From Bdellovibrionales bacterium (lineage in GTDB: Bacteria; Pseudomonadota; Alphaproteobacteria; Micavibrionales; UBA2020), in contig JBBRVE010000005.1 in assembly GCA_038247245.1 (NCBI GenBank), positions 737 through 64,736 on the forward strand: 64,000 nt of DNA. The letters are read 5' to 3'. Shown piece by piece: positions 2-64,000 of this stretch. Position 1 is the stretch's first letter, and each line of letters starts with the position of its first letter. The translations under genes were made by a program, and so were the position numbers. The notes beneath the pieces were generated by a model. It did no database searches and was not told the origin of the DNA. It saw only the letters and a list, made by a program, of their open reading frames with translations.

Positions 2-3000
2 GTCGGCGCGGTTGCGCAGGCGCAGATTTTCGAAGCCTTCCGCCATCCCGGCGACCCCTACCTGAAGGGGCAGGGCGTCACCGAACTGGATGCGACCGCC
101 GGCACGATTGCCGGATCGAGCGGCCTGTTCGACCTGCGCGTGCAGGGTAACGGCATTTCGACCGACTATGCGCTGATGGCGCTCGACAAGGTTTTGCGTC
201 AGGGCATGGCTAGCAACCCCACCGGCGGCGCGCTGCAAAACGCGCTGGGCGGCCTGATGCAGATTTATAACTCCGGTATGCTTGTCGTCGCCTGCCTGAT
301 GATCGGCTGGATGGTCATTTCCGTCATCATCGACACCGCGAAAACCGGTACGGTCGGTGGCGGACGCCACAACATGGTCTGGGTTCCTATCCGCGTGCTG
401 TTCGCGCTTGGCATCATGTTCCCGCTGGGCTCCGCCGGTTTCTCGGGCGGCCAGTACATGGTCGTGAAGCTTGCGGAATGGGGTTCCAACTTCGGTACGC
501 GCGGCTGGGCGACTTATGTCGCTTCCATCGTCGGCAACCAGACGCTGCTGTCGCCCTATACCGTCAACAACAACACCAACGTCGTCACCTCGATCAACAA
601 AATCATGGTCTGCCAGGTGGCGTACAACACCTATCTGCAGCAGCGCACCGGCGCGCTTGATGCCGATCAGGTGATCGAGCTGAAGCAGGACACAATGAGC
701 GGCGCGCCCGGCACCCCGCAGCAAAGCCAGCTTTACATCACCAACCGTTACAGCAACAACACCGCCAACAATATCTGCGGTGCGATCAAGTTTGCGACGG
801 CCGCGACGCCCGACGACAATAACCAGTTCCTCGACTGGAGCACGGCGACGCCGAACACGGCAATGACTGCGTCGACCACGACCGGCACCATGCCCGACAA
901 CAACTATAAAAACGTCGGCATGGCAACCGCCGTGAAAGGTTTCCGCGATGCGATGCGTGGCGCGCTGTCTGCCGATCTGGCTGACACCCCGACCGGCGTT
1001 GGCGCGGGTTCTGTCGTGACCGATGCCCGCCAGTTCGCCTGCCAGTTCGTTTCCCGTCGTTTCAGCGATGGCGGCGGCGCGGGCAACCCCGTGGCCGATA
1101 TTCCGATGTGCGGAGGCGCAGCGGCTGCCGCCACCGACCCCGATACGGCGTCGCACCAGAACATGCTGAACACCATGCAGGCCGCGATGATGGCCGCCTA
1201 TACCGGCGGCGGACGCGGCGCGCTCAACAACTATGTGGGCACCACATCGGCCAGCCCGATGATGACCGAAATGTCGAGCCGCGGCTGGGCCGGCATGGCC
1301 ATGTGGTATCAGGACATTGCGAACCTGAACAACGTGCAGTACACGGCGCAGGAACCGATGGCAACGGTCGAGCCCGGCTCGATCTGGTCGGGTTCCGGCG
1401 GTGCGGGCTGGGAGCGTTGCGCGGGTGATGCCAGTGAATCAGGCGAGCAGTGCAAAATCTCCGGCCTTGAGGACAAAGTGTTCTCGGTCATGAACGAATA
1501 CGACCGTTGGTGGGGTGTTTCCGGCCTTTCGGGTGCGCCCGGTAAAGTTGGCCAGGCCGCGGCTTCGTCCAACCAGGAACTGAACCCCGCGGTTGGCTCC
1601 TCGATCGGCTCGATCCTGTCATGGATCGGCAACGTGTCGATCGGCGACAACGGCATCCTGACCGTGCTGACGCGCTTTATCTTCCCGCGTGCGGCCGGCG
1701 TGTTCCTGTTCAAGGCTGTCGACCTGTCGGCGACCAACACCTATCCGCTGGCGCAGCTGTCGGACACCGGCCATAGCGTGCTGGGCATCGGCGCGCTGCT
1801 GTGGACGGGCGTCTCGATCCTGCAGGCTGTCTCCACGATTGACGGCGCGGGTTTCTCGCTGGGTAAAGGTCTTGCCTTCTCGGCGCTGATGGGCGCGCTT
1901 GCCTCCGTCGGCTCCATGATGATTTTGGCGGGCTGCGTGATTTCCTTCTATCTGCCGGCGCTGCCGTTTATCCGCGTCGCGTTTTCGGTGCTGACATGGC
2001 TGACCTCGGTGTTCGAGGCTGTCGTGATGGTACCGGTTGCGGCGCTGACCCACCTGTCCACCATGGGGCCCGGCCTGATGGGTAACCACGGGCGGACGGC
2101 CTGGACGCTGTGGTTCAACGTCTTTATGCGCCCGATCCTGACTGTTTTCGGCTTTGTCGCCGGTATGCTGTGCTATTCGACCTTCGCTGTGTTCTTCCAC
2201 ACGACGTTCGAACAGGGCGCGGCATCGGTGATGTCGACGCATTGGTACCCGATGCAGATCCTTGCCAAGGTCGCGTATTCGGTTATCTATCTCGGCACGC
2301 TTTATGCGGCTGCGAACACCTCTTTCAAGCTGCTGGACGTATTCCCCAACCACCTGATGCGCTGGCTGGGTGAATGGGGCGCGAAACAGGATACGGCGCT
2401 GCTCGACGGCCGTTCCAACATCGGCGGCGGCCTCGGCTTCGCGGGTGCGACACTGATCAAGAACCTGGAATCGGCGATCCCGATGTCGCAGGGCTGGAAC
2501 GTGCGTAACCTGATCAAGAGCGACGACGAACTGACCAACCTCAGAAACCCGAACAGTGTCGCGTCCCGCGCGGTGGCCATGGGCGTGCGTGACGAACTGC
2601 TGACCGATACCAAACTTGCGCGCAAGGAATCGGATATGCAGCTTGCCCGTTCCCGCATGACCGCGGATGAACGCGACCGCATGGCCAATATGTCGTCGGG
2701 CGACAAGGACCGCTTCCTGCAGCACAAATTCCTGGAGCAGGAGAACAAAAAATATAAACGCTTCGGCTTCGAGCGCGGCATCGGCTACAGCCTGAACACG
2801 ACCGGCAAGGCAGGGTACAGCAGTTTGGGCACCTCCGTTGCGGGCCTGAACATGCATGCCAGCATGAACCCGCGCCGCTGGTTCTCCCGCAACGAGGGCG
2901 GCAAGAGTATGGGCGGTTCCGGCTTCCATTTCGGTGAAAAACTGGCCGGTCACGGCCAGCGCGGCCACAAGGACAACGACCAGGGCTTCCGCGAACTGGA

Positions 3001-3715
3001 CGGCCCGTCGATTGGTCGCAGCCAGATGGCCGGTATTTCCGTCTCCGACAGCGCGCTCGATGGCGCTCTCTCGGGTGGCGCCGGCTCGGGCATGGACCTG
3101 ATGAACGCAACCCAGATGGCAAGCGTGCGCCAGAAAATCGAAAACCAGATGTCGGGCGCCGACGCCGTCAACTATGTGTCGATGTCGGATGCGGACAAAG
3201 ACAGCTTTATCCGCCGCTATTACGAAACCGACCCTGAACTGTTCGCGCCTGGCGTGGGCAAATCGGGCACGGACGCGATGTTCGGCTACATGAAAGCGCA
3301 GGACGAGCTGAATACAATCAGCAAATTGGGGCTTGGCGGTGCCGCCCTTGACGAGGCGACTCGCGAACCCCGCCAGACGATCGGCTATGCGCAAGCGATG
3401 TGGGAAGAGAAAAACGCAGGTTCCGACGTCAACTCGCAATGGGGCTTCATGACCCGCGATGAAAAAGCGGCCGTCGCCATGGCGCACGGCAAGCTGGTGG
3501 AATCGCGTGACCGTGCGGCCGAGAACGAAATGTCATCCGAACAGCGTATGGCATGGAAAAACGCCGATATCGCAAAACGCGAGCAATTCTCGGATGCGAA
3601 ATACGCCGAAAGCGTGATGCGCGGGCTGGTTGCCAAGGGCGTTGCGAACGAAGGCAAGCTCAACGACCTGATCAAGGCGAACGAAGCGCTGGGTGCCAAG
3701 CTGTTCAAGATCTGA
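2..3715 (+). CDS. dotA: DotA/TraY-family type IVB secretion membrane protein, paralog 1 (5'-truncated by window edge)
   Basis: Frame open from base 2 (VGAVAQAQIFEAFRHPGDPY aligns with paralog 2 VGEVAQAQLFFTHPGNPY). DotA/TraY-like motifs: DTAKTGTVGG..W.PIR, RGWAGMAMWY, YPLAQLSDTGH, SFYLPALPF, FEAVVMVPVAAL, NVFMRPILTVFG, P...MRWLG; multiple TM segments. Confidence 0.8.
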   Translation, partial: VGAVAQAQIFEAFRHPGDPYLKGQGVTELDATAGTIAGSSGLFDLRVQGNGISTDYALMALDKVLRQGMASNPTGGALQNALGGLMQIYNSGMLVVACLMIGWMVISVIIDTAKTGTVGGGRHNMVWVPIRVLFALGIMFPLGSAGFSGGQYMVVKLAEWGSNFGTRGWATYVASIVGNQTLLSPYTVNNNTNVVTSINKIMVCQVAYNTYLQQRTGALDADQVIELKQDTMSGAPGTPQQSQLYITNRYSNNTANNICGAIKFATAATPDDNNQFLDWSTATPNTAMTASTTTGTMPDNNYKNVGMATAVKGFRDAMRGALSADLADTPTGVGAGSVVTDARQFACQFVSRRFSDGGGAGNPVADIPMCGGAAAAATDPDTASHQNMLNTMQAAMMAAYTGGGRGALNNYVGTTSASPMMTEMSSRGWAGMAMWYQDIANLNNVQYTAQEPMATVEPGSIWSGSGGAGWERCAGDASESGEQCKISGLEDKVFSVMNEYDRWWGVSGLSGAPGKVGQAAASSNQELNPAVGSSIGSILSWIGNVSIGDNGILTVLTRFIFPRAAGVFLFKAVDLSATNTYPLAQLSDTGHSVLGIGALLWTGVSILQAVSTIDGAGFSLGKGLAFSALMGALASVGSMMILAGCVISFYLPALPFIRVAFSVLTWLTSVFEAVVMVPVAALTHLSTMGPGLMGNHGRTAWTLWFNVFMRPILTVFGFVAGMLCYSTFAVFFHTTFEQGAASVMSTHWYPMQILAKVAYSVIYLGTLYAAANTSFKLLDVFPNHLMRWLGEWGAKQDTALLDGRSNIGGGLGFAGATLIKNLESAIPMSQGWNVRNLIKSDDELTNLRNPNSVASRAVAMGVRDELLTDTKLARKESDMQLARSRMTADERDRMANMSSGDKDRFLQHKFLEQENKKYKRFGFERGIGYSLNTTGKAGYSSLGTSVAGLNMHASMNPRRWFSRNEGGKSMGGSGFHFGEKLAGHGQRGHKDNDQGFRELDGPSIGRSQMAGISVSDSALDGALSGGAGSGMDLMNATQMASVRQKIENQMSGADAVNYVSMSDADKDSFIRRYYETDPELFAPGVGKSGTDAMFGYMKAQDELNTISKLGLGGAALDEATREPRQTIGYAQAMWEEKNAGSDVNSQWGFMTRDEKAAVAMAHGKLVESRDRAAENEMSSEQRMAWKNADIAKREQFSDAKYAESVMRGLVAKGVANEGKLNDLIKANEALGAKLFKI

Positions 3716-3906: not shown

Positions 3907-3956
3907 TTAAGAATAAGCCTGTTATAGGTTCCGGTCTTTATTTGCAGGGCAAAACC

Positions 3957-6900
3957 ATGAGCGATTCCAAGCATAAGGGTTTAATTGCGGACGGTCTTCG
4001 CGCACTCGCGGAGCTACGCAAGGACAAAAAGGCCGATGCCGCCGTCGAGAGATTCGCAACCGGCGAGCGTGTTACAGGCCGCCGCACCCTTACGGACGTA
4101 CAAAAAGCCGCCAGCCCCTATGCCGAAAAACGCGCGCTGGAGAAGCGCGAGATCGCGGAAGGCAAACGCCAGCCGTTCCGCATCAAGGGCTCCGCCATCG
4201 CCGCCTTCATGTTCCTGCCGCAGTTCAGCCTGTGCTTCCGCGGCTTTTCGCACATCTATCCCGTGTTCATGCGCATCATGGCGCAGGTGCTGGTGCAGGC
4301 GTCACTGCTGCCCAATGACCATCCCGCCGTGAACTATGGCGCCGAAGGCGTTCCCAATGTCAGCTTCCGCAAGATGATGGGTGATGTCTGGTTCAAGCTG
4401 CGCACCACGCGCCGCACCGGCATGTACCAGTACGGCATGTTCGCCGTCGTCGTCATGATGATCGTGACGCTGACTGCCACGATTGGTACTTTCTTCGCCC
4501 GTATCTTTCTGGGTGTCGGCGAAGTCGCACAGGCGCAGTTGTTCTTCACGCACCCCGGCAACCCCTACGGCGCCGGCGCGGGCAAGACAGACATGGGCAA
4601 CGTGGGTGCCATCACGGGCGCGGGCGGCCTGTTCGACGGCCGCGTCGCCAACAACAATATCTCGACCGATTACGGCCTGATGGTGCTGGACAAGATCCTG
4701 CGTCAGGCGGCAGCCGATACGCCGAATGGCGGCGCGCTGCAGAACGCCCTTGCCGGCATGATGGGCGCCTATAACACCGGCGTCATCACGATTGCCTGCG
4801 TCATGATGCTGTGGATGATCGTTTCCATTGTCATCGACACCGCAAAAACCGGTGTGTTCGGCGGCGGCCGCCATAACATGGTCTGGGCGCCGATCCGCGT
4901 GATGTTCGCGCTTGGCCTGCTGTTCCCGCTCGGCTCGGGCTTTTCGTCCGGCCAGTATGCCGTGATGAAGCTTGCGGAATGGGGTTCCAACTTCGGTACG
5001 CGCGCCTGGTCGCAATATGTGGCGGGCGTTGTGGGCGACCAGTCGCTGCTGGCGCCCTTCGCGGTCAATAACGCAACCTCCCTCGTCAACAGCATCGGCA
5101 AGGTGATGGTCTGCCAGGTGGCCTTCAACACCTACCTGCAGCAAACGCAGGGCGGCCTGCCGCCCGACCAGGTGATCCGTCGCGTGCAGGACGTGACGCC
5201 GAACCTCGGCACCATCACAAACCGCTATACCAACAACACCGGCTCCAACGTCTGCGGCACGATCAGCTATTCGACCGCCTCCACCGCCGACGACATGGAC
5301 AAGTTCCTGGCGTGGTCGGCGATGGTGCCTTCGACCCCGATGACGGGCTCGACTCCGATTGTGAGCGGCACGGATTATAACGCTGCCCCCAACTTCACGA
5401 TTGCCGCCCGCGCGTTCCGTAATGCGATGCGTGGCGCGCTGGAACCTGCGATGCAGGACAGCGCGACCAGCGCGCTGGGTTCCGGCGGTACGGTCATTGA
5501 AATGGCCCGCCGCTTCGCCTGCCGCTATGTTGCCCGCAAATTCCCGGACGGCGGCACGGGCACCAGCCCTGTCGGCGCGATTCCTCAATGCGACGCGGCG
5601 ACGACGGCTGCGGCCGCTGCCGACCCCACGATGGCCGAACAGCAGGCAATGTCGAACCAGTTGCAGACCGACATCATGGCCGCCTATGACGGCCCCGGCA
5701 AAACCGCCCTGACGACCTATATCGGCGGCCCGATGGTGGCGCAGATGAATGCGCGCGGCTGGGCGGGCATGGGCATGTGGTATCAGGACATCACCAACAT
5801 GAACAGCCTGATGGCAGGCGCACAACAACCGACCGCGACCGTTGAACCGGGTTCCGTGTGGATCGGTGCCGGCGGATCCGGCTGGCTGCGTTGCATCGGA
5901 TCGAAAATCATCGGCCGCTCGTGCCGTATCTCGGGCCTCGAGGAAAAAGTCCTCGGCGCGCTCGACGGCTACGACAAATGGTGGGCGAACTCGACGGCGC
6001 CCGGCAGCCCCGGCCGCAGCCTGAACACGGCTTCCACCGGCGGCCGCGACATCAACACGGGTTCCAGCGGAAGTTTGAAAAACCTGATGGCGGCGTTTAA
6101 AAACCTCTCGGGTGGCGACAACAACATCGCGTCGACGCTCGCGCGCTTCTTCGTGCCCAGCCATGGCGGCGCGTTTATCTTCCGCGCGGTCGATTTGGCC
6201 GCAACCGGCACTTACCCCCTCGCGCAGCTGGCCAATACCGGCCATAGCGTGCTGGGTACGGGCGCCCTGCTCTGGGGCGGCGTGACACTGGTGCAGGCGG
6301 TATCGACGCTGAAAGGCTTCGGCTTCTCGCTTGGTATCGGTGTCGCCGTTTCCTCGCTGCTCAACGCGTTTGCCACGATCGGTACCGCGATGATCGTGTC
6401 GGGCCTGATGATTTCCTTCTACCTGCCTGTTCTGCCGTTCCTGCGCGTTGCCTTCTCGGTCCTGACCTGGATGGTGTCGGTGTTCGAGGCGGTGGTGATG
6501 GTGCCTGTCGCGGCGCTGGCGCACCTGGTCTCGACCGGTGACGGCCTGACGGCGGGGCAGCCGCAGTTGCGCACGGCATGGATCATGTGGCTGAACGTGC
6601 TGATGCGCCCTGTGCTGACGGTGATGGGCTTTGTCGCCGGTATGCTGATCTATAATACCTTTGCTGTGTTCTTCCACACGACCTTCTCGCAGGGTGCTGC
6701 TTCGGTCATCTCGTCCAACAACTACTTCATGGCGCTGATGGCCAAGGTCTGTTATTCGGTCATCTATCTGGGCACGCTGTACACGGCTGCGAACACTTCG
6801 TTCAAGCTGCTCGACATCTTCCCGGAAAACCTGATCCGCTGGATGGGCGGTTCGCCGGATCGCAGCGTCTCTGCTTCGCTGGGTCAGGGCCATGACGGCA

Positions 6901-7253
6901 ACATGTACGCTGCAACCCGCGTCTTCAACCAGATGCAGCCGCGAGGCGACGTGGCGATCAAGGATGCGGATACTCTTGCTGCCGAGCGCCAGCAACTGGC
7001 AAGCCGTGCCGACAACATGAAGGCGAACGCCAAGGACAAAGCGCTGAGCGGCGACGAACGCAAGCAGGCCGCGATCGACAAGAGCAACACGATCGACGGG
7101 CTGAACGCCAAGGACAAAGCCGCCTACAACAAGATGAGCCCCGACAAGCAGGACGATTTCCTGGCATCCAAGTTCAAGGAACAGGCAAACGCCAAATACG
7201 TCCGCCTGCCATGGGAAAAAGGCCTCACCGGCAAGCGCGGTTACCAGACCTAG
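3957..7253 (+). CDS. dotA: DotA/TraY-family type IVB secretion membrane protein, paralog 2
   Basis: Same motif set as paralog 1 (VWAPIRVMF, RGWAGMGMWY, YPLAQLANTGH, FYLPVLPF, NVLMRPVL, IRWMGG); ATG at 3957 preferred over TTG at 3942. Confidence 0.8.
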   Translation: MSDSKHKGLIADGLRALAELRKDKKADAAVERFATGERVTGRRTLTDVQKAASPYAEKRALEKREIAEGKRQPFRIKGSAIAAFMFLPQFSLCFRGFSHIYPVFMRIMAQVLVQASLLPNDHPAVNYGAEGVPNVSFRKMMGDVWFKLRTTRRTGMYQYGMFAVVVMMIVTLTATIGTFFARIFLGVGEVAQAQLFFTHPGNPYGAGAGKTDMGNVGAITGAGGLFDGRVANNNISTDYGLMVLDKILRQAAADTPNGGALQNALAGMMGAYNTGVITIACVMMLWMIVSIVIDTAKTGVFGGGRHNMVWAPIRVMFALGLLFPLGSGFSSGQYAVMKLAEWGSNFGTRAWSQYVAGVVGDQSLLAPFAVNNATSLVNSIGKVMVCQVAFNTYLQQTQGGLPPDQVIRRVQDVTPNLGTITNRYTNNTGSNVCGTISYSTASTADDMDKFLAWSAMVPSTPMTGSTPIVSGTDYNAAPNFTIAARAFRNAMRGALEPAMQDSATSALGSGGTVIEMARRFACRYVARKFPDGGTGTSPVGAIPQCDAATTAAAAADPTMAEQQAMSNQLQTDIMAAYDGPGKTALTTYIGGPMVAQMNARGWAGMGMWYQDITNMNSLMAGAQQPTATVEPGSVWIGAGGSGWLRCIGSKIIGRSCRISGLEEKVLGALDGYDKWWANSTAPGSPGRSLNTASTGGRDINTGSSGSLKNLMAAFKNLSGGDNNIASTLARFFVPSHGGAFIFRAVDLAATGTYPLAQLANTGHSVLGTGALLWGGVTLVQAVSTLKGFGFSLGIGVAVSSLLNAFATIGTAMIVSGLMISFYLPVLPFLRVAFSVLTWMVSVFEAVVMVPVAALAHLVSTGDGLTAGQPQLRTAWIMWLNVLMRPVLTVMGFVAGMLIYNTFAVFFHTTFSQGAASVISSNNYFMALMAKVCYSVIYLGTLYTAANTSFKLLDIFPENLIRWMGGSPDRSVSASLGQGHDGNMYAATRVFNQMQPRGDVAIKDADTLAAERQQLASRADNMKANAKDKALSGDERKQAAIDKSNTIDGLNAKDKAAYNKMSPDKQDDFLASKFKEQANAKYVRLPWEKGLTGKRGYQT

Positions 7254-17683: not shown

Positions 17684-18637
17684 TTAAATCTTCAGCTTTG
17701 CGATCTGTGATTGCGGGGCGGGTTTGTCGTCCAGCACTTGCGGCTGGCCGCCGGCTTTTTTCAATTCATCGGCTGCGCGGGAAAGGGTGGCGTCAGCGAG
17801 CGTGGTGAATCTCTCGGCAACGCCCAGCGTTTCCGCGCCGGTTTTCAGGTTCTCGGAAATAATCAGGCGTTCGCGGGATTCGAAATTGAAAATTTCGGTG
17901 ATCTTGCGGTTCAGCACGGGCATGTCGGCGATTTTGGCGATGGTGGTGGCGTTCATCAGCGCCCATGTTTCCGATGCGCTGGCGGGCTTGTTTTCGTTGG
18001 CGGCGGGAACAGCAACAACGGCGGGCGTTTCCACCGGCGGCGCGCCTCGCACGGTCGTCTCGATGATTTTTTGCAGGCGCGGGTATTTTTCGCGGGCGAG
18101 GTCGGCGGGCGTCTTGTCATCCTTGCCCGGCATATCGGTGCGCGCGCCGGCGGTAATCAGGAATTCCAGCACTGCGCCGCGGTCGTTGGCGACGGCGTAA
18201 TAGGCAGCGGTCAATTCGTCCTTTTTATTGCGCACATTCAGGTCGGCGTTTTTTTCGGCCAGTGCCTTCACCGCATCAAGGTCGCCGTTATGCGCCGCCC
18301 AGTGGATAGGATAGGTATAGCTGCTGTTATGCGCGTTCACATCCGACCCTGCCGCGATCAGCAGCAACGCCGCCGCCGATTTATCCTTGGTCAGCGCGAG
18401 CAGCAGCGCGTGGTTTCCCTCGGGGTCTGTCAGGTTGAGGTCGGGCTTGCGCGTGAGGAGGTATTTGATGGCTTCCAGCTGCCCCGCCTCCGCCGCCAGC
18501 ATCAGGGCGGTCTTGCCTTCGGCGTTTTTCATGTCGACGGGATAGGGCGTACCGGTCTGCAAACCGTATTTGAGTTCATCAAGATCACCGCTGATCGCGG
18601 CCGCAAAGAAGGTCTTCTTCGTGCTGATGAATGCCAT
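17684..18637 (-). CDS. ankyrin-repeat protein with unrecognised C-terminal TEIFNFESRER domain
   Basis: GKTALMLAA..G, GNHALLLA, YPIHWAAHNG, LTAAYYAV, KTPADLA ankyrin units; Pro/Ala linker; C-terminal domain shared with neighbours. Confidence 0.88.
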   Translation of the reverse strand: MAFISTKKTFFAAAISGDLDELKYGLQTGTPYPVDMKNAEGKTALMLAAEAGQLEAIKYLLTRKPDLNLTDPEGNHALLLALTKDKSAAALLLIAAGSDVNAHNSSYTYPIHWAAHNGDLDAVKALAEKNADLNVRNKKDELTAAYYAVANDRGAVLEFLITAGARTDMPGKDDKTPADLAREKYPRLQKIIETTVRGAPPVETPAVVAVPAANENKPASASETWALMNATTIAKIADMPVLNRKITEIFNFESRERLIISENLKTGAETLGVAERFTTLADATLSRAADELKKAGGQPQVLDDKPAPQSQIAKLKI

Positions 18638-18678
18638 GTGGTAAGTCGTTTTCCCCGCGTTGTTTATGGTGTTGGGGA

Positions 18679-18707
18679 ATTATCCCAACCGCACGAGAAA
18701 CGGTCAA
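18679..18707 (-). promoter_or_regulatory. sigma70-type promoter of ankyrin gene 18637
   Basis: minus strand TTGACC-N17-GATAAT. Confidence 0.55.
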
Positions 18708-18775
18708 GAGGTATTATAATACCATACTGAAAACGTTCACGTTTTCAGCTTTTATAACAATCAATCGTTGGGTTT

Positions 18776-19726
18776 TTAAACGCGGAACGGCTTCTGCGGG
18801 CCGGAAGTGCCGCCCGTATTGCGCTTGCCGATCACATCGGATTCCGCCGCTTCACCGCCCAGCTTCACGAATTCGGCGAGCGCCTTGCGGAGCGCTGCTT
18901 CGGCGATGTTGTCGAAATTTTCGGGCGCGGAAGTTGTCTCCACGCCGCTGCGCGTGTTTTCGTTGATGACCGTGCGCTCGCGGCTTTCGAAATTGAAAAT
19001 TTCGGTCAGGCGGCGGTTGATGTCGGGGATCTCGCCGATATGCGTCACCTGATGTTCGCCGGTGCGTAACCATCGGTCATTGCCGCTATAGGCGGCTGCG
19101 GCTGGTTGCTGCGCGGCGGGTTCATCTTTGGCGACCGGTGTCTCGAGGATTTTCTGCAGGTGCGCGCCCTTGGTGGTTGCGATATCCATCTGCGTCTGGC
19201 CTTTTTTGTCGGGTATGTCGGTGCGCGCACCGCTTTGCACCAGAAATTCCACCACGTTCGCATGGCCCTGAATGACCGCCCAATGCAGGGGCGTGTAGCC
19301 ATTATTGACGATCACCGTATCGAGATCGGCGTTATAACTTACCAGCAGCTTCACCAGTTCGATATCTCCCTGATGCGCGGCGAAATGCAGGGGGGTGATG
19401 TAATCGGCGGCATGGGCGTTCACATCCGCGCCGCGCTTGACCAGCACTTTAGCAGCCTCGCGCCGCTTGTTAATCAGGCTGAGTGTCAGCGGCGTGTGGC
19501 CTTCCTTGTCAGGCGTGTCTGCGCTGAGGCCGAATTTCAGCATGGTATTGAGGATATCTGCATGGCCCAGCTTGGCGGCATGGGCGATGGCGGTCATGCC
19601 CGCTTCGTCGCGCGCGTTCAAATCGACTTTGCGGCTGTTGAAATAGTATTCCTTCACATAGCGCGTGACGGTTTTCTCGTCGTTGTCTTTCACGGCCTGA
19701 AGGAATTTTTTTACGCTGTCGAACAT
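18776..19726 (-). CDS. ankyrin-repeat protein with C-terminal TEIFNFESRER domain
   Basis: GMTAIAHAA, GHTPLTLS, TPLHFAAHQG, GYTPLHWAV..GH repeats. Confidence 0.88.
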   Translation of the reverse strand: MFDSVKKFLQAVKDNDEKTVTRYVKEYYFNSRKVDLNARDEAGMTAIAHAAKLGHADILNTMLKFGLSADTPDKEGHTPLTLSLINKRREAAKVLVKRGADVNAHAADYITPLHFAAHQGDIELVKLLVSYNADLDTVIVNNGYTPLHWAVIQGHANVVEFLVQSGARTDIPDKKGQTQMDIATTKGAHLQKILETPVAKDEPAAQQPAAAAYSGNDRWLRTGEHQVTHIGEIPDINRRLTEIFNFESRERTVINENTRSGVETTSAPENFDNIAEAALRKALAEFVKLGGEAAESDVIGKRNTGGTSGPQKPFRV

Positions 19727-20838
19727 TACGGCATCCTCGCCGTTTTATTGAGCGTGCGTTTGGTCAGCTGCGTGTCATCCAGCGCGCCGCCGAAATCGCG
19801 GTAGGCGGTCGCGGCCTTCTGCAATGCCGCTTCATCCAGCGTGTCGAAGCTTTGCGGCGCTGCCATGTTTTCAGCGCCCGTGCGCAGGTTTTCCGATATC
19901 ACGATGCGCTCGCGGCTTTCGAAATTGAAAATCTCGGTCAGTTTGCGCTCCAGCGCAGGATAGATGCCCACATGCGCAACCTTGCCCTCGCCCATGCGCA
20001 GCCATGTTTCGGTTTCTTTTTCCGTCGTATCGGGCATGTCGTAACCGGGGCGAGCGATCTTTTCAAACGGCGTCAGCAACCGGACGGCGAATTCGTTGCC
20101 GTGCGAACGGGCGTATTCCAGCGCGTTGAGGCCGTTGTTGGTTTTGACGTCGGGATTTGCGCCTTTTTCAATCAGGTGCTCGATCATCTGCTGGCGATTA
20201 TAGACAATCGCCCAATGCAGGGGGCTGTAGCCGTTCGCGCTGTCGCGCTGGTTAATATCCGCGCCGCTGTCCAGCAGCAGCGTCACCATTTTCTGCGAAT
20301 TGTTGATCGCTGCGTAATGCAGGGGGCAGCGTTTCTGGTCGTCATTTATATCGATATCAGCGCCTGCCGCGAGCAGCAATTTTACGATTTCAGTACGGTC
20401 GTGTTGCGCCGCCTGCAACAAAGGCTGGTTCAGGTTCGGGTCGGCCTTCGCCTCCAGCAGATACGTAACCCCCGTGGCGCTGCCACGTGCTGCCGCGATA
20501 GACAATGGCGTAGCGCTGCCTTGCGCTTTGCCATTCGCATCGGCGCCGTTGACCAGAAAATGGCGCAGCGCCTCGTTGCGGCCATTCATTACGGCGATGG
20601 CAAGCGGCGTGTAATGGATGCTGCCTGTGGCCTCGATATCCGCACCTGCGTCCAGCAGCGCGTCAATCGTGTTTATCTTGCCCGCCTTGGCGGCAAGGTG
20701 CAGGGCGGTATAGCCCTCGCGATCGGTCACTTTCAGGTATTCGGCGGCATGCTTGCCCGCCAGATAGCTTTTCAGCACATCCACATCGCCACGCTCGGCG
20801 GCCTTCAGGAAGCCTTTATTGGTGTGCATCAGGGGCAT
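19726..20838 (-). CDS. ankyrin-repeat protein with C-terminal TEIFNFESRER domain
   Basis: GYTALHLAA, YTPLAIAV, TPLSIAA, PLLQAA, CPLHYAA, GYSPLHWA repeats; TAATG coupling to the next gene. Confidence 0.88.
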   Translation of the reverse strand: MPLMHTNKGFLKAAERGDVDVLKSYLAGKHAAEYLKVTDREGYTALHLAAKAGKINTIDALLDAGADIEATGSIHYTPLAIAVMNGRNEALRHFLVNGADANGKAQGSATPLSIAAARGSATGVTYLLEAKADPNLNQPLLQAAQHDRTEIVKLLLAAGADIDINDDQKRCPLHYAAINNSQKMVTLLLDSGADINQRDSANGYSPLHWAIVYNRQQMIEHLIEKGANPDVKTNNGLNALEYARSHGNEFAVRLLTPFEKIARPGYDMPDTTEKETETWLRMGEGKVAHVGIYPALERKLTEIFNFESRERIVISENLRTGAENMAAPQSFDTLDEAALQKAATAYRDFGGALDDTQLTKRTLNKTARMP

Positions 20839-20971: not shown

Positions 20972-21634
20972 GTGACAGTGTTTATCCGCCTTCATATGCT
21001 GGCACATCTAGGACAGGGCATTTTGGCGACATATCAGGAAATTTTCGGGCTGGTGGCGTTCCTTATCGGGCTATGGGGGACGGGCGTATATGTCGCCTCC
21101 ATCTTCCGCGGCGAAACGCGCCCGCATGTATACACGCATCTGGTTTGGGGCCTCGTCACGCTGATCGCGTTTCTGGGGCAGCTGGCCGATCACGCAGGGC
21201 CCGGCGCATGGGCGCTGGGCATCACGGCGGCGGCGTGCCTGTTTCAGGCTGGCCTTGCGCTGAAATGGGGCGAGAAAAACATCACGCGCGGTGACAAGCT
21301 GTCACTTGTCGCAGCCTTCGTCGCGGTCGTGCCGTGGATGATGACGGATGATCCGTTATTGTCGGTCGTGCTGGCATCGGTCATCAGCGGCGTCGCGTTC
21401 TTCCCGACGATCCGCAAATCATGGACAAAACCGGACGAAGAAAACCTGACCGCCTATATGATCGCGAATGTGAAACTGGGGCTGTCACTTGTCGCACTCA
21501 CGCATTTCACGGTGACAACGCTTGTGTATCCTGTGTCGTCCATCGTGATTAACACGGCGTTTGTTTTGTTATGCGTTTCCCGCCGCGCCGCCTTGGCCCC
21601 CTCTACCGCCCTTGCGGGAGAGGGCGGGGGGTGA
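20972..21634 (+). CDS. hypothetical multi-pass membrane protein (start uncertain)
   Basis: About 6 hydrophobic segments; SIFRGETRPHVYTHLVW and FFPTIRKSW.KP.EE motifs. Confidence 0.7.
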   Translation: MTVFIRLHMLAHLGQGILATYQEIFGLVAFLIGLWGTGVYVASIFRGETRPHVYTHLVWGLVTLIAFLGQLADHAGPGAWALGITAAACLFQAGLALKWGEKNITRGDKLSLVAAFVAVVPWMMTDDPLLSVVLASVISGVAFFPTIRKSWTKPDEENLTAYMIANVKLGLSLVALTHFTVTTLVYPVSSIVINTAFVLLCVSRRAALAPSTALAGEGGG

Positions 21635-50392: not shown

Positions 50393-51874
50393 TCAACGAT
50401 CGGATTTCAATGCTGTTTCAAGCGGCTTCAGGTAGGCGGCGTAGCGGTGCCCTTTTCCGACCGAATCTCCATAAATAGGTTTGCGGACCTGTGCGGCGCT
50501 GGCGGTTTTGACCTGCCGCGTCGTGGTGTGAAACGAAAGACAGGCGTCATTCCAGTCAAGGCCGCTATAGGCCAGCAATTTGCGTGTTTCGCTTTCCTGA
50601 TCCGTCACTATTGATTCATAGCTTACGGTATACATCCTCCCGGGAAAAAGTTTTTCCCAATGCGCCATCAGTTTTTGATAGCCGCGCATGTAGCGTCCGA
50701 TATCGCCGAGGTCATTTGCCCAAGGCATCAACCCTTCGGAAAAAAAGGTCTGCCAGATCGACAGCCCGCAATCGAGCGGGTCGCGCGTGCAGTGAATGAC
50801 GCGCGCTTTGGGGAAGGCGCGGAAAATAACGCCGACCCACAGGTAATTGAAAAGCATCTTGTCTGTCACGCGCGGCGCGGCGCTGTGCGTCAGGCCCAGA
50901 TATTTCTGCGCAATCATATCCAATGCGGAGGGGGTAAGGTTTTCAAGGAAAGTGCGCCCGATCGTGGGAATGCCATCGCCCGCGCTGCCGGGTGCTTCGG
51001 CATTCGTGTAAAAGGGCAGGCTTTCCTGCAGGAACGGCACTTCGCCAACGCCAGCAACATCGGGATGGCTGCACAATATCTGGTCGATCAGCGTGGAGCC
51101 GGAGCGGGGCAGGCCGACGATAAAGACGGGCTGTTCGCTACTATTGCGGCCCGTCGTCGTGTCGCTGAACAGCGCAATGATCGTATCTATATAACGATCG
51201 AAAAGGTCTGGCTTATAACGCGCCGATGCCTTGCGGATATCATGCGCGGCAGCGTAATGCGCAAAGCCCCTATCCGCGTCGCCCGCCGCCAGATACGCGT
51301 GCGCCAGCGTATATTCCAGCACGCTCTGCTGTTGCGGCGGCAGTTTTGAGGCGTTTTTGTGCAGGTTCAGCAGTGCGTTGAATTCGGGTGAACTGGCGCC
51401 GAATTTTCTGAGCTGCCCCAGCGCGTGATAAGGCGCAATAAAATCGGGCTGCTTGCGGATTGCTTCGGTGAAGCAGGCGATGGACTGTTCCGCCTGGCCG
51501 GCTTCGCCGTACAAAACGCCTAAGCGGTTTAACACGGGCGCTGACGGCTGGCAGGTCAAGGCACGCGCGGCAAGCGCCAGGGCTTCATCGCGCTGCTCCG
51601 CATCCATGCGCAGCCGTGCGAGCGCGGCAAGTGCATTGGCGTTGCGCGCATCGATGTTTGTGATGTTTTCGAAAATTCCGGCGGCTTCAGCGGGCGATTT
51701 CTGCATCAGCATCAGGCCAAGGTCGAGCAATGCGGCGGTATTATCGGGTTCAAGCTGAAGGTAAAGGCGGCAGGCCGTCTCCGCCTCCGCATGGCGGTCC
51801 TGCTGCAAAAAACCGCGCGCGTTTTTTAGCGTCGCCGCTGCTTTTCTGGAATCTTTTTCAAGCCGCGCGCTCAA
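50393..51874 (-). CDS. TPR-containing sulfotransferase family protein
   Basis: N-terminal TPRs; 5'-PSB loop FIVGLPRSGSTL, DKML.N, RDPLD..LS (3'-PB), YESIV, TASAAQVRKPIY. Confidence 0.88.
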   Translation of the reverse strand: MSARLEKDSRKAAATLKNARGFLQQDRHAEAETACRLYLQLEPDNTAALLDLGLMLMQKSPAEAAGIFENITNIDARNANALAALARLRMDAEQRDEALALAARALTCQPSAPVLNRLGVLYGEAGQAEQSIACFTEAIRKQPDFIAPYHALGQLRKFGASSPEFNALLNLHKNASKLPPQQQSVLEYTLAHAYLAAGDADRGFAHYAAAHDIRKASARYKPDLFDRYIDTIIALFSDTTTGRNSSEQPVFIVGLPRSGSTLIDQILCSHPDVAGVGEVPFLQESLPFYTNAEAPGSAGDGIPTIGRTFLENLTPSALDMIAQKYLGLTHSAAPRVTDKMLFNYLWVGVIFRAFPKARVIHCTRDPLDCGLSIWQTFFSEGLMPWANDLGDIGRYMRGYQKLMAHWEKLFPGRMYTVSYESIVTDQESETRKLLAYSGLDWNDACLSFHTTTRQVKTASAAQVRKPIYGDSVGKGHRYAAYLKPLETALKSDR

Positions 51875-53391
51875 GCGCCTTCTTTCAGCGATTGAATCAG
51901 GGGCTGTAGATGAGCCTCGTATTTTTTCCAGCGCGCAACCGACCCGGTATAGAGGCTTTGACGCACTTGGGACGAACTGGCTGTGCTGACAGGGCGGTCG
52001 GTTTCATGGAATTTCATGCAACGCTCGTCCCATGGCAGGTCACAGAATTGCAGCAAGCGGCGCGTTTCGAATTCCTGATTTGCCACCATGGTCTCGTAAT
52101 TCGCTTCGAATATCTGGCCCGGGAACAGTTTGTCCCAATGCGCCATCAGTTTTTTGTAGGCGCGGTAATACCTGCCGATTTCACGCTGGTCATAGGCCCA
52201 GAACATGTCGGCATAGAACATCTTCTGCCAGATCGACAGGCCCATCGCCACGGGGTCGCGCGAGCAATGGATGATTTTCGCATTCGGCAGCGCCAGCCGG
52301 ATCATGCCGATCAGGAGGAAATTGAACAGCATCTTGTCGGAAAGTTTCGCGCCCTCCTTTGCAAAGGGATCGGTCAGTTGCAGGTATTTCTTCGCGATGC
52401 CATCCAGCATATCGCCCGACAGGTTGTCGACCAGCTGTTTTGTGATCGTGGGCATTCCGGGGGAGAACAATTGCGGCACTTCCGCATTTGGAAAGACCGG
52501 TATGCAATTTTGCAGGAACCCGACCTCGCCCATCGCCGCCATCTGCGGGTGGCTGGAAAGGATCTGTTCTGTCAGCGTAGAGCCGGAGCGCGGCATGCCG
52601 ACAATAAAGACCGGACGGGATGTCGATACCGCGCCGGCATTGGCGAATTTCTGCACCAGCTCCGGCGTGAACAGCGCGATAATGCTGTCGATGTATTTTT
52701 CGATGCTGGCGACGGCGATGGTTTTATGCGCCAAACGCTGCAGGCGGTTGCCAGTCTCGTAATGGCCGAAAGCCTCGTCATCGCGGCCTACATCAAGCAT
52801 CGCGTTGCCGAGCGTAAATTCCAGCTTGATGCGCAGGTTATCCGGCAGGCTGCCCGCCTTGTCCACCAGCGCGGTCAAGTTCTTGAAATCGGCATCTTCC
52901 AGCTTGAATTTCTTCAGGGTAGACAGCGTGTAATACCCGTCGACGCAATCGGGGTCTTTTTCAACAGCGCGTTCCGCCATCAACTGCGCGGCCGCGATGT
53001 CGCCGGCGCGGCGCATAATGATGGAGCAGCGCATCTGGATAAACGGGGCGTCCGACATGGACGCGGCGCGCGTCGCAAGCTGCCGCGCTTCCTCGGTCGA
53101 GCCCTTTTCCATGCAAACGGCTGCAAGCGCGGTCATCGCCTCGAGGTCGGCGGGCGCTGTGTGCAACATGCGGCGGAAACAATATTCAGCGTCGTCGTAT
53201 TGCGCCAGATGGCGGTGTATCTGCCCAAGATTATACAGGGCGGGCAGCAAATCCGGCACATAGCCCAGCAACACCTGATAAGCGCGCATCGCTTCAGGCA
53301 CCCTGCCTGCTTTACGCAGCGAGTCGGCCGTCTTCAGCATTGTCCCGATATCGGGCGTGCCGCTTTTTGCGGGTTTCGGTTTTTTGGCCAT
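51871..53391 (-). CDS. TPR-containing sulfotransferase family protein
   Basis: N-terminal TPRs; FIVGMPRSGSTLTEQILSSHP, DKML.N, RDP....LS, TASSSQVRQ.LY..SV.RWKKY. Confidence 0.88.
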   Translation of the reverse strand: MAKKPKPAKSGTPDIGTMLKTADSLRKAGRVPEAMRAYQVLLGYVPDLLPALYNLGQIHRHLAQYDDAEYCFRRMLHTAPADLEAMTALAAVCMEKGSTEEARQLATRAASMSDAPFIQMRCSIIMRRAGDIAAAQLMAERAVEKDPDCVDGYYTLSTLKKFKLEDADFKNLTALVDKAGSLPDNLRIKLEFTLGNAMLDVGRDDEAFGHYETGNRLQRLAHKTIAVASIEKYIDSIIALFTPELVQKFANAGAVSTSRPVFIVGMPRSGSTLTEQILSSHPQMAAMGEVGFLQNCIPVFPNAEVPQLFSPGMPTITKQLVDNLSGDMLDGIAKKYLQLTDPFAKEGAKLSDKMLFNFLLIGMIRLALPNAKIIHCSRDPVAMGLSIWQKMFYADMFWAYDQREIGRYYRAYKKLMAHWDKLFPGQIFEANYETMVANQEFETRRLLQFCDLPWDERCMKFHETDRPVSTASSSQVRQSLYTGSVARWKKYEAHLQPLIQSLKEGA

Positions 53392-61195: not shown

Positions 61196-64000
61196 ATGGC
61201 TGCGCCCTCTGACCGTAGAAAGATCGAAAGCATTTTGCGCGAACCGCTGACGCGGCATCGCCTTATGTTGAATTCGAAACTGCGCGCGGCTCAAGCCGAA
61301 GAAAACCCGACCCCGTTCACCTTCGAAGACCTCAAGGCCTTCATGGGCGCGATCCGCAGCGCTGATCCCGACTATCAAAAAGAAACACTGAACGCGCTCG
61401 AAGCCGTCGCAACCGGCAAGGCTCCGCAGGAGCCGCGCTTCGATACACCCGAAACACAATTGATCTGGGGCGCGTCGCTTGCGTTCCTGTCGGCGAACCC
61501 CGACCACATGAAAACCTGGCTGAAGCCGCCCGCCGAAGGTGTCGCGCTGCCCCAGACCGAACTGTGGAAACAGGTTTCCACCACTGATTTCGCCTACGGC
61601 GAGCTGCTCAGCCACGCGCACCATATCCGCGAAGCGCTGCGCGACAAGGACACGAAATACGGCTGGGGCGAACCCGGCACCGGTTTCACGTTCGACCGTT
61701 CCAAGAATCTGATCAACGTCGATTTCATGCAGTCGATGGTCCTGGGTTTCGAACATGCCCGCGCTGATGTCTACCGCGAAATCGGCCACTCGCTGCTCTC
61801 GGTCACCTATCCGAAGCGGATGAAGGAAGTTTTCAAGGAAATGCAGCCGCTGATGAAAAAGTCGCGGCTGGCACAGGCGAAGAAGGGCCCCAAGCTCAAG
61901 CCCGACGAATATAAAAAACTGACCATGCTGTCGACCGAATGGCAGCTGCGCCACATGCTGTTTACTGCCGCCGAGGAAAACGTCGCCAACCGCTTCGTGT
62001 CCAACATGGGCTCGCAATTGCTGCAGGATTTCGGCGTGTCGCTCAACAACACCGCCGTCACGCATCGCGGCGTCGGCCTGACGCGCCTGCCGAACGATGG
62101 CATGTCCGAAGAACTGAAACGCTACATGAACCTGTGCAACACGGTTCAGCTCAGCTTCTTCGCGAATAACGCCCTGTTCGACGATACCGAAGCCGGCTGG
62201 GCAAAAGTCGGTATCGACCCCGGACTCGTGCGCAAAACCGCGACGCTGAATGCGCGCCCCGCGGGCCAGAAGGACGACACCGACGGCATCGAACACTCCG
62301 ATTTCAAACACCTGCGCGACCTCGCGGGCGGCCCGAAAGGCCTCGAAAATTTGCAGCCCAAGCAGCACGAACGCCTGTTCGGCTGGGCCAACCTGAAAAA
62401 CCGCGTTGAACGCGCCGATGCCGACCGCAAGGAAATCATCGATGAAATCTGGCGCGATTACGCGGAAGACCTGATTCAGAAAATCCTGAAAATGGCCAAT
62501 GACCAGATCGACGAAAATCTGGACAAGGCGCAGAAGGATCCGAAGAACCAGAAAGACAAAAAGAAACAGGACGGCAAGGACCTCGATCAGGATCAGGACG
62601 AGGACGGCGATGATCAGGATGGCGACGACGGCCAGGATGGTCAGGACGGCCAAGAGGGCGACGACGGACAAGAAGGCCAGGGCCGGGGTAAAGGCAAGGG
62701 CAAAGGTAAAGGCAAGCCCCAAAAAGGCAAAAAGCAGCGCGGCAAGCCGCAAGGCGAGCAGGACGACAGCGATGATTCCGATGACGCCGACGGCGACGAT
62801 GCCGATGGCCAGGAAGGCAAAGATAAAGACGGCAAAAAAGCCGACAAGGATAAAAAAGGCGACAAGAAAGAAAAAGGCAAAAAAGGCGAGAAGGGCGAAG
62901 ACGGCGAGGAGCAGGACGGCGACGGCGAAGATGGCGAAGGCCAGGACGCTGACGGCGAAGAGCAAGACGGCGACAAAAAAGGCAAGCAAAAAGGCAAAGG
63001 CAAAGAAGGCAAGCTCGGACAGGACGACGAAGACACCGTTCCCGTCGAAGGCGCAGGCGACCAGCCCGCTCCCAAAGGCTCGACCGAATTGCCCAGCGAC
63101 GAACTGGACCCGAACGGCGAAGGCAAGGATGCCGACGGCGAAGGTCAGGACGGCGATGGCGAAGGCCAGGATGCAGATGGCGAAGACGCGGACGGCGAAG
63201 ATGCCGATGGCGACGACGGCATGACCGCTGACGAGCTGGAGAAAGAGCTCGATAAGCGCAAACAAAAAGGCGAAGAAGGCGACGATGCCGACGGCCAGGA
63301 TGGCGAAGACGGCCAGGATGGCGAAGGCAAGGGCAAGCCCGGCAAAGGCAAACCCGGCAAGCCGTCCAAGCAGGCAGGCCATGGCGACGGCAAATCGCTC
63401 GAGGAACTCGCGAAACTGGATTGGACCGACTACCAGAAACGCATCGCGGAACTGGCAGGCCCGATCAGCCGTGTGCGCAAACTGTTCAAGGACGTTCAGG
63501 AACGCCAGCTGCAGCGCAAGCGCGCAGTCTCGTCGTCTCTCGAAATCCTGCCCGAAAACGGCGAGGTCAAGGACCGCTTCAACGTCGAAGCGCACCGCAA
63601 CCTCACGATCAAGCGCAAGACGGGCGATGTCGAAGAAAACGATTTGAAACGCTTCCATAGCGATCAAGTGAAGATGGTCCCGACCGAAGTCGATATCGTC
63701 ATCATGATCGACGGCTCCGGTTCCATGAACGGCACGGCGCTGAACTCGGCGCTGCAGGCGGCCGCCATCATGTTCGAAGCCGCCTCCGGCAAAGATATGA
63801 AGATGAACGTGTATGTCGGCATGTGGGGCGATGCAAACCCGCCCATGCTGATCACGCCGGGTGCAGACCGCATCGAAATCGGCAAGCAGATGGCGCGCGC
63901 GCAGAAGGGCCTGAATTCCGGCACCGACCTCGCGCCCGCGATCAAGAAGGTCGCGAAAACGATCGGCGAACAGCGCGGCAAGAGCGGCACGCTCTCGGGC
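61196..64000 (+). CDS. large vWA-domain protein (CobT-like architecture), 3'-truncated; absent from ORF track
   Basis: Frame read open from ATG 61196 (MAAPSDRRKIESILREP) to window end; REIGH segment, long D/G/E/K low-complexity linker, then VDIVIMIDGSGSM (MIDAS DxSxS) and SGTDLAPAI. Confidence 0.85.
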   Translation, partial: MAAPSDRRKIESILREPLTRHRLMLNSKLRAAQAEENPTPFTFEDLKAFMGAIRSADPDYQKETLNALEAVATGKAPQEPRFDTPETQLIWGASLAFLSANPDHMKTWLKPPAEGVALPQTELWKQVSTTDFAYGELLSHAHHIREALRDKDTKYGWGEPGTGFTFDRSKNLINVDFMQSMVLGFEHARADVYREIGHSLLSVTYPKRMKEVFKEMQPLMKKSRLAQAKKGPKLKPDEYKKLTMLSTEWQLRHMLFTAAEENVANRFVSNMGSQLLQDFGVSLNNTAVTHRGVGLTRLPNDGMSEELKRYMNLCNTVQLSFFANNALFDDTEAGWAKVGIDPGLVRKTATLNARPAGQKDDTDGIEHSDFKHLRDLAGGPKGLENLQPKQHERLFGWANLKNRVERADADRKEIIDEIWRDYAEDLIQKILKMANDQIDENLDKAQKDPKNQKDKKKQDGKDLDQDQDEDGDDQDGDDGQDGQDGQEGDDGQEGQGRGKGKGKGKGKPQKGKKQRGKPQGEQDDSDDSDDADGDDADGQEGKDKDGKKADKDKKGDKKEKGKKGEKGEDGEEQDGDGEDGEGQDADGEEQDGDKKGKQKGKGKEGKLGQDDEDTVPVEGAGDQPAPKGSTELPSDELDPNGEGKDADGEGQDGDGEGQDADGEDADGEDADGDDGMTADELEKELDKRKQKGEEGDDADGQDGEDGQDGEGKGKPGKGKPGKPSKQAGHGDGKSLEELAKLDWTDYQKRIAELAGPISRVRKLFKDVQERQLQRKRAVSSSLEILPENGEVKDRFNVEAHRNLTIKRKTGDVEENDLKRFHSDQVKMVPTEVDIVIMIDGSGSMNGTALNSALQAAAIMFEAASGKDMKMNVYVGMWGDANPPMLITPGADRIEIGKQMARAQKGLNSGTDLAPAIKKVAKTIGEQRGKSGTLSG
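62520..63380 (+). repeat. low-complexity coding repeats (DGED/DGQD and GKGK blocks)
   Basis: Many degenerate gacggcgaag / gatggccagg / aaaggc units inside the vWA gene. Confidence 0.75.

Follow-up and report, generated by a model that had tools for sequence, protein, structure and literature searches.

Three adjacent genes in a 64,000-nucleotide stretch of an alphaproteobacterial genome (GenBank assembly GCA_038247245.1, contig JBBRVE010000005.1, positions 737 to 64,736; hereafter the window) encode ankyrin proteins that all end in the same domain, which raises the question of what such a constant end behind variable repeats is for. The original prediction, made from the letters of the window, took it for an unrecognised secretion, chaperone-binding or activity module of effectors of a Dot/Icm-type type IVB secretion system (T4BSS). 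We describe here this C-terminal module, the family of proteins that carry it and the secretion machinery encoded with it, and we tentatively read the family as T4BSS substrates.

A conserved module at the C-terminus of three ankyrin proteins

The three tandem open reading frames (ORFs; Table 1) all qualify as ankyrin-repeat proteins, with several repeats above the Pfam gathering score (Ank_2 at 147, 107 and 81 bits for genes 1, 2 and 3; cut-off 27.3). Each ends with an alignable module of about 73 residues followed by a tail of 17-25 residues. The motif TEIFNFESRER is identical in the three modules (3/3), within a few bases of where the original prediction had placed it; a tryptophan lies about 22 residues before it, and ENL(K/R)TGAE or ENTRSGVE, a conserved phenylalanine and a helix ending in GG come after it. 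The features predicted downstream of the motif, written as EN(L/T)(K/R)(T/S)G(A/V)E, the F and the GG-terminated helix, are thus all present in the alignment and in the structural model. Pairwise identity is 44-56% in the module (32-41 of 73 residues) against 29-34% in the ankyrin part (54-64 of about 189), the module being the constant part behind variable repeats. A profile built on the three domains recovers the three modules in the window's own genome (G000; 3.07 Mb in 151 contigs, 96% complete) at E-values of 1e-46 to 5e-51; the shared domain is, therefore, not a product of chance.

Pfam gave no match at E ≤ 1 on the last ~100 residues of the three proteins, and Pfam, NCBIfam and PADLOC found nothing over the module. 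A profile search of PDB sequences with the module reached a best E of 0.087, the ESM Atlas returned no usable match, and Foldseek with the module model gave 0 matches in the PDB at E ≤ 0.001. The AlphaFold2 model, based on 54 aligned domains (window 19729-20025), is confident, with a predicted local distance difference test score (pLDDT) of 87.6 and a predicted template modelling score (pTM) of 0.77, and shows five antiparallel strands (residues 5-10, 15-22, 27-34, 39-46 and 52-54), a helix (65-77) and a disordered tail; TEIFNFESRER covers strand 3, the turn and strand 4 of this model. The whole of gene 2 was modelled too (pLDDT 91.2, pTM 0.69): in this model the N-terminus forms an ankyrin cap helix, and a linker of low confidence runs between the ankyrin stack (4-195) and the module (~218-290). 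With VIA-align, the best structural match was the KhtT N-domain (7agv_A; Z 7.0, root-mean-square deviation (rmsd) 3.1, 65 residues), below or within the background of the tool, whose typical best Z is 7-8, and the polo boxes of Plk1 (PB1), Cdc5 and KKT3 followed at a background-level Z of 5.6-6.1 (rmsd 3.1-3.7, 67-74 residues, 4-8% identity), Plk1 having an rmsd of 3.1-3.3 over 67-68 residues. Since sequence, family-library and fold searches give nothing significant, the module is uncatalogued, in agreement with the original prediction; it is a real domain family with, as modelled, a sheet plus helix arrangement and no demonstrable relative.

The tail had been described as short and basic. It is present, but it is acidic first and basic only at its end, many members having an acidic patch just after the GG and then a Lys/Pro-rich end. 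The tails of the three window proteins share 0-4 identities in 17-19 positions. The last 20 residues contain 12% lysine and 16% proline in family members and equally in 23 other ankyrin-like ORFs. Judged by eye, the N-termini show neither a signal peptide nor a membrane segment.

The family in the genome and in public data

The module is not restricted to these three genes but recurs throughout the genome. The three-domain profile detects 16 places in G000, each at the end of an ankyrin-type ORF, and a wider profile, iterated locally, detects 37 ORFs. In all of them (37/37) the module ends 0-25 residues before the stop. Pfam ankyrin repeats precede it in 16 of the 37; five are long (268-313 residues) and have no Pfam match, several of them looking by eye like degenerate ankyrins; the remaining 16 are short (97-147 residues), 14 being essentially the module alone (97-120 residues) and two having 146-147 residues. 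One long member, on contig C1, has an unrelated beta-rich N-terminus unlike ankyrin. The module-only genes lie in tandem arrays of four on C17, seven on C71 and two on C98, plus one on C104, and orthologous arrays are found in other genomes of the genus.

Using the ankyrin-type profile on 1.84 billion cluster representatives, we obtained 923 matches at E ≤ 0.001, counted as clusters at 50% identity, and 591 at E ≤ 1e-10. In the best 150 of these 923 the module is again at the C-terminal end (150/150); ankyrin repeats occur in 56 of the first 60 and in 82 of the other 90, the rest being mostly shorter than 170 residues, and these 150 contain no other credible Pfam partner. The variety of N-terminal partners, which the original prediction had proposed to examine, is low: what is found is ankyrin, ankyrin-like sequence, one unknown domain, or nothing. 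The public relatives are named only 'ankyrin repeat protein' or 'uncharacterized protein', and the literature search returned no publication on the module. The family is lineage-specific and is defined by its constant C-terminal cassette, that is, the module with its helix ending in LGG and an unstructured tail of 15-25 residues rich in Pro, Lys, Ala and Leu.

A second C-terminal signature, (V/L)(A/S)AP(R/K/Q)TA.F(K/R)(K/R), ends 36 ORFs of G000, many of them ankyrin-like and none in the window region studied. It occurs 44 times in all six-frame ORFs, 36 of these at 1-13 residues from the stop (6 in a reversed-sequence control), for example in C117:1741-2832, C73:2899-6025, C45:21504-22993 and C4:51140-52772; one carrier (C12:45288-45803) also has the five-stranded module described above. 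Among the genomes sampled, a degenerate DNA pattern of it was matched 24, 21 and 19 times in the three of the genus and 0-2 times in the other 68 of the order (controls 0-2), and this second signature is, therefore, genus-specific.

Phyletic range of the module and of the ankyrin expansion

The organisms surveyed are known from metagenome-assembled genomes. The families of the window's order are labelled f1 to f8, f1 holding G000, and copy numbers per genome in these surveys count the candidates scored, hence are lower bounds. Of 301 genomes of the order, 48 match the ankyrin-type profile: 37 of 41 in f1 plus G000 itself, 9/9 in f8, one weak match among 218 in f6, and 0/32 in the other five families. 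In the same way, the wider profile, applied to 121 genomes of the order, matches 36/39 in f1, 9/9 in f8 and 0/72 in the others, genomes of the window's genus having 22-40 matches each. The module is absent from 400 other alphaproteobacterial genomes sampled across the class, and related loci in genome records belong nearly all to entries named 'MAG: Alphaproteobacteria bacterium', 4 of 38 being labelled Micavibrio sp.

DotA/TraY is found in 295 of the 301 genomes, which often have 3-6 matches each, and 70 of 71 genomes have a DotL-like coupling protein in single copy. The range of the module is nested inside this T4BSS-bearing order. The expected co-occurrence with dot/icm genes does hold in that 47 of the 48 module-bearing genomes have DotA, but the reverse does not, and with DotA in 295/301 genomes against the module in 48/301 it says little. 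The three findings that the original prediction had named as grounds for abandoning it were not made: the domain matches no characterised family, is not limited to three duplicates and is not distributed independently of the T4BSS.

The ankyrin expansion follows the module, in the same two families. Ank_2 was detected in 14/14 genomes of f1 and 9/9 of f8, mostly with at least 50-66 matches per genome, the scoring being capped at 62, and in 12 of 47 genomes of the other families with 1-8 matches. A first look at G000 gave 211 ankyrin candidate stretches, and all 62 of those scored match (62/62).

A type IVB secretion system with its coupling complex

Both large ORFs at the start of the window are DotA/TraY, as predicted, and a third copy lies at C135:76-2346 of G000. 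Other T4BSS parts in this genome are DotH/IcmK (235 bits), two DotI/IcmL (190 bits), a DotG-like protein, DotN/IcmJ (94 bits), a DotL-like protein (378 bits with the TrbC_conju model) and DotM (162 bits, below the cut-off of 230). DotM and DotL form an adjacent pair on contig C4, and of 20 relatives examined, 19 have DotM immediately upstream of DotL; the coupling protein is found with TraG-D_C (PF12696) and not with TrwB_AAD_bind (PF10412). Judging from these profile matches, G000 encodes a T4BSS with a coupling complex, and a chromosomal T4BSS seems to characterise the whole of this alphaproteobacterial order. No publication on a T4BSS in Micavibrio-like bacteria was found in the literature; for M. 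aeruginosavorus ARL-13, a strain that may lie outside this order, it is reported that there is no evidence of type III or IV secretion (PMC3189940). As TssC of the type VI secretion system is found in 0/121 genomes of the order and VirB4 was not found in the 96%-complete G000, the T4BSS is the only injection machine seen besides the flagellar export apparatus.

On contig C11, six ankyrin genes (202-786 residues, without the module) flank the two DotI/IcmL, DotG-like and DotN/IcmJ genes, directly beside dotI-dotH-dotG-dotN (G000:C11 ~23.2-33.1 kb; L055:402-4313, L056:14551-19918); the scan of C11 covered 42/42 ORFs of at least 130 residues in one 20-kb locus and 11/45 in the next. HK97-type major capsid, prohead protease and portal genes adjoin these ankyrin genes (G000:C11 ~15.3-20.0 kb; L056:6560-11288), and this gene group may be what is left of a prophage, or else a gene-transfer-agent-like cluster.

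The adaptors IcmS and IcmW were not seen in 46 of 60 ORFs of at least 85 residues in the 20 kb around dotL/dotM, no genome-wide search having been made. They are reported to have arisen within Legionellales (PMC8896642). They are probably absent in this lineage. The DotL-like protein (866 residues; L057:10177-12774, minus strand, equal to G000:C4:64177-66774) ends in an Ala/Pro-rich tail that carries four repeats, LNWMQVIG, VSWEDVIS, ISWMDVIG and LNWADVIG (P-L-N-W-x-[DQ]-V-I-G-like). Among 21 DotL tails, hand-chosen from the 70 genomes with a DotL match, we read 2-4 repeats of P-x-[ST]-W-x-[DE]-[VI]-I-G in 7/7 tails of f1 and 3/3 of f8, and variants in f3, f4 and f5; in f6 they occur in 0/4 tails, which have NPMGFF or PSIFG-type motifs instead. 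Since G042 and G065, two f1 genomes lacking the module, have the repeats too, as do f3, f4 and f5 with variants, the repeats do not track the module cleanly, and a role as its landing pad was not borne out. Adaptors or substrates may dock on these repeats in a T4BSS that lacks IcmS/IcmW. A complex prediction of the DotM cytoplasmic domain, the DotL tail (690-866) and the module, run without controls, scored 0.00 and weighs neither way.

What the family may do

Our preferred reading, to which we give a probability of roughly 40%, is that the proteins are putative substrates of the Dot/Icm-type T4BSS, the module and its Pro/Lys-rich tail being the constant recognition part. It is based on the strict C-terminal position in different architectures, on the scatter and expansion of the copies, on N-termini that look cytoplasmic, and on the T4BSS being the sole candidate route. 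We infer secretion through the chromosomal Dot/Icm-like system, in which the folded module and charged tail would form a position-dependent element read by the coupling-protein complex. Ahead of this cassette there is a variable ankyrin array, the presumed target-binding part, or another region, or nothing, and the ankyrin repeats would act in a recipient cell, most likely a eukaryote. Signals of type IV secretion systems are C-terminal, and the cassette keeps this place whatever the N-terminus (37/37 in G000 and the best 150 of the 923 public matches), in ankyrin, non-ankyrin and module-only members alike. The copies are expanded, scattered and partly tandem, as in effector repertoires. The presence of a T4BSS, with DotA in 47/48 module-bearing genomes and no rival machine found, the link with ankyrins and the similar composition of the tails also support this reading. 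Of the proposed T4BSS effector repertoire, the machine itself is encoded; translocation and a secretion, chaperone-binding or activity role of the domain stay at the level of what the arrangement suggests.

Several observations weigh against it. The T4BSS is near-universal in the order and the module is confined to two of its eight families, so that the system works without the module and co-occurrence cannot discriminate. Three f1 genomes that are 93-100% complete (G042, G065 and G081) have no module by either profile; G042 and G065 keep a DotL with the tail motifs, and G042 has 29 ankyrin matches. The 14 module-only proteins carry no cargo, which suggests that the module itself has some function. 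The Dot/Icm signals known so far are short, unstructured stretches, those of the Legionella type with a Glu-rich block and small or polar residues, and a signal domain that is folded and shared by a whole family is not known from any T4BSS. Apart from the window, where 10 kb separate them from dotA, the family genes are not beside T4BSS genes. In the boldest form of the reading, to which we give a somewhat lower probability, the module and its Pro/Lys tail would by themselves define the injected repertoire (~20-40 proteins per genome) of uncultured, ankyrin-rich, eukaryote-exploiting alphaproteobacteria.

The module-only arrays, which are tandem and orthologous in the genus, imply an intrinsic function, and would be accounted for if the proteins were T4BSS effectors whose module is the working part in the recipient cell (targeting, peptide-binding or oligomerising), the Pro/Lys-rich tail alone being the export signal. 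Known Dot/Icm signals are indeed unstructured, other ankyrin-like ORFs without the module end in similar Lys/Pro-rich tails, and the sheet plus helix resembles the peptide-binding polo boxes, yet at a Z of 5.6-6.1, below background level. We consider this rather unlikely: a module working only in the host needs no C-terminal place in every architecture (37/37 and best 150/150), although common descent could explain it, and the three window proteins have tails that are not conserved among them (0-4 identities in 17-19 positions). The narrower range of the module compared with the T4BSS and the lack of direct evidence for export would suit a family that is not secreted at all, in which the module docks on a bacterial hub (protease, polymerase, ribosome or motor), the ankyrins bring clients as cytoplasmic adaptors, and the short members are competitors or regulators. 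The short module-only paralogues fit such a competitor role, and the three genes sit among housekeeping genes. Such adaptors are unlikely. Bacterial lineages with so large an ankyrin expansion are typically host-associated and equipped with injection systems; adaptors would explain neither the strictly kept place at the C-terminus nor the Lys/Pro-rich tail; and, with the family absent from 400 other alphaproteobacterial genomes, the hub would also have to be lineage-specific.

Export of the family by another route that reads C-terminal signals, in particular type I secretion, is improbable. Type I signals are indeed C-terminal, but the usual ones do not resemble a folded beta domain followed by a Lys/Pro-rich tail, and Pfam detects no RTX or calcium-binding repeats in the members scanned, no search for type I secretion genes having been made. 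In favour of this route, Orientia ankyrin proteins are reported as type I substrates (PMC4315096). It is very improbable that the family serves defence or immunity, as ankyrin sensors or immunity-protein arrays, and is unrelated to secretion. PADLOC PDC-M72A and Ankyrin and NCBIfam MzaA do match, and the tandem arrays, in which each paralogue has ~100 residues, resemble immunity-gene arrays, but the matches fall in the ankyrin repeats only, PADLOC gives 0 matches for the module alone and for 4-5 non-ankyrin or module-only members, and no toxin or nuclease partner is seen beside the three genes.

If the reading as T4BSS substrates is correct, a conserved folding module on dozens of paralogues per genome would be a simple handle on an injected repertoire, and one profile would list the effectors, whose prediction in Dot/Icm-type systems is hampered by short, degenerate signals; substrate recognition by a T4BSS without IcmS/IcmW would become open to direct study. 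The survey points to an uncultured alphaproteobacterial group with a T4BSS in nearly every genome, and the ankyrin expansions of f1 and f8, on the scale of those of Wolbachia and Orientia, suggest that associations with eukaryotes in soils and sediments have gone unrecognised. Should the secretion reading prove wrong, there remains a real and widespread domain family (923 clusters) without a Pfam or NCBIfam entry or a solved relative.

The ankyrin genes and their surroundings

The three genes are arranged head to tail, and the start of gene 2 overlaps the stop of gene 1 by one base (TAATG). Of the two near-consensus sigma70 promoters that had been proposed, both patterns are found, but their count is not above that of shuffled sequences (4 promoter-like sites in 4.5 kb against 2.9 ± 1.5), which is no excess. 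The hairpin between genes 2 and 3 is not a canonical terminator, since no T-run follows it on the minus strand.

Table 1. Positions in the window of the ankyrin genes, their modules and associated features
Feature	Position	Strand	Description	Match
Gene 1	19726..20838	-	370 residues; ankyrin repeats ~1-262, linker, module W279-G351, tail	Ank_2 2e-43; domain profile E 5.1e-51
Module of gene 1	19786..20004	-	TEIFNFESRER 19906-19938; tail 19729-19785	
Gene 2	18776..19726	-	316 residues; ankyrin helices 4-195, low-confidence linker 198-215, module, tail	
Module of gene 2 (W219-G291)	18854..19072	-	TEIFNFESRER 18974-19006; tail 18779-18853	
Gene 3	17684..18637	-	317 residues; ankyrin repeats, Pro/Ala-rich linker, module, tail	
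Module of gene 3 (W225-G297)	17747..17965	-	TEIFNFESRER 17867-17899; tail 17687-17746	
Sigma-70-like promoter pattern upstream of gene 1	20902-20874	-	TTGACA-17-TATAGT	11/12; pattern match only
Sigma-70-like promoter pattern upstream of gene 3	18707-18679	-	TTGACC-17-GATAAT, with TG	10/12; pattern match only
9-bp hairpin between genes 2 and 3	18727..18748		Possible end of gene 1-2 transcript	
dotA/traY paralogues, tandem	2-3715 (open at window start), 3942-7253	+	~10 kb from the ankyrin genes	TIGR04346, 226 bits each (cut-off 100)

The neighbours of the three genes include the housekeeping genes for S21, aminopeptidase P and an oxidoreductase. Divergent from the ankyrin operon lies an ORF for a hydrophobic protein of 220 residues (window 20972-21634, plus strand) with no Pfam or NCBIfam match. 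The window stretch, whole or in part, is present in 6 DNA runs from 4 studies, and no RNA run is listed for it.

Elsewhere in the window, two tandem genes for tetratricopeptide-repeat plus sulfotransferase proteins (493 and 506 residues; 50393-53391, minus strand) lie between flagellin/FlaF and hook genes, and their products could modify flagellin. At 61196-64000 (plus strand) an ORF of more than 934 residues reaches the window end without a stop, and its sole match, to VWA_2, lies near its end; an equally long ORF is antisense to it, and either strand may be coding.

Comparison with known systems

The predicted fold, an antiparallel sheet covered on one face by a C-terminal helix, is like that of polo boxes, whose sheet has six strands, and of the KhtT N-domain, and the likeness is one of arrangement only, with Z below background, 4-11% identity and nothing from Foldseek at E ≤ 0.001. 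As for the proteins as a whole, Legionella and Coxiella also have ankyrin proteins in genomes with a Dot/Icm-type system, but none of their Dot/Icm Ank families has this C-terminal module. NCBIfam models of Legionella Ank effectors (T4SS_AnkY, AnkH, AnkG, AnkX and others) match the window proteins at E 1e-18 to 6e-28 over the repeats only, and the named Legionella Dot/Icm Ank equivalogs (NF0430xx) reach at best 67-98 bits against cut-offs of 450-1400, so that the three proteins are not members.

A variable ankyrin array with one short constant C-terminal domain, in a large paralogous family, is also seen in ANK-PRANC/F-box proteins. The PRANC/F-box is helical and recruits SCF ligases. Such proteins are described in poxviruses and Orientia (PMC4353913, PMC4148323). 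A PRANC/F-box identity of the module was rejected, with no Pfam match at E ≤ 1 in the three proteins, none in the best 150 public relatives, and a beta-rich model.

In the X-T4SS effectors of Xanthomonas and Stenotrophomonas, a conserved C-terminal domain (XVIPCD) marks the substrate set, which can be listed with one profile, as would be the case here. XVIPCD proteins have varied toxic N-terminal domains aimed at bacteria, with immunity partners, whereas here the N-termini are ankyrin or absent, no immunity-like partner is seen and binding to the coupling protein is presumed.

The Beps of Bartonella are directed to the VirB/D4 type IVA system by a bipartite signal consisting of the helical-bundle BID domain and a positively charged C-terminal tail; relaxases have BID signals too. 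Unlike BID, the module is modelled as five strands and one helix and has no sequence relation to it, and the only type IV secretion system found is of type IVB; membership in the BID family was rejected because the modelled fold is beta-rich and not a helical bundle. The architecture is nevertheless alike in both: a folded C-terminal domain of ~100 residues followed by a short charged tail, in a paralogous family with varying N-termini, some members of which consist of little else.

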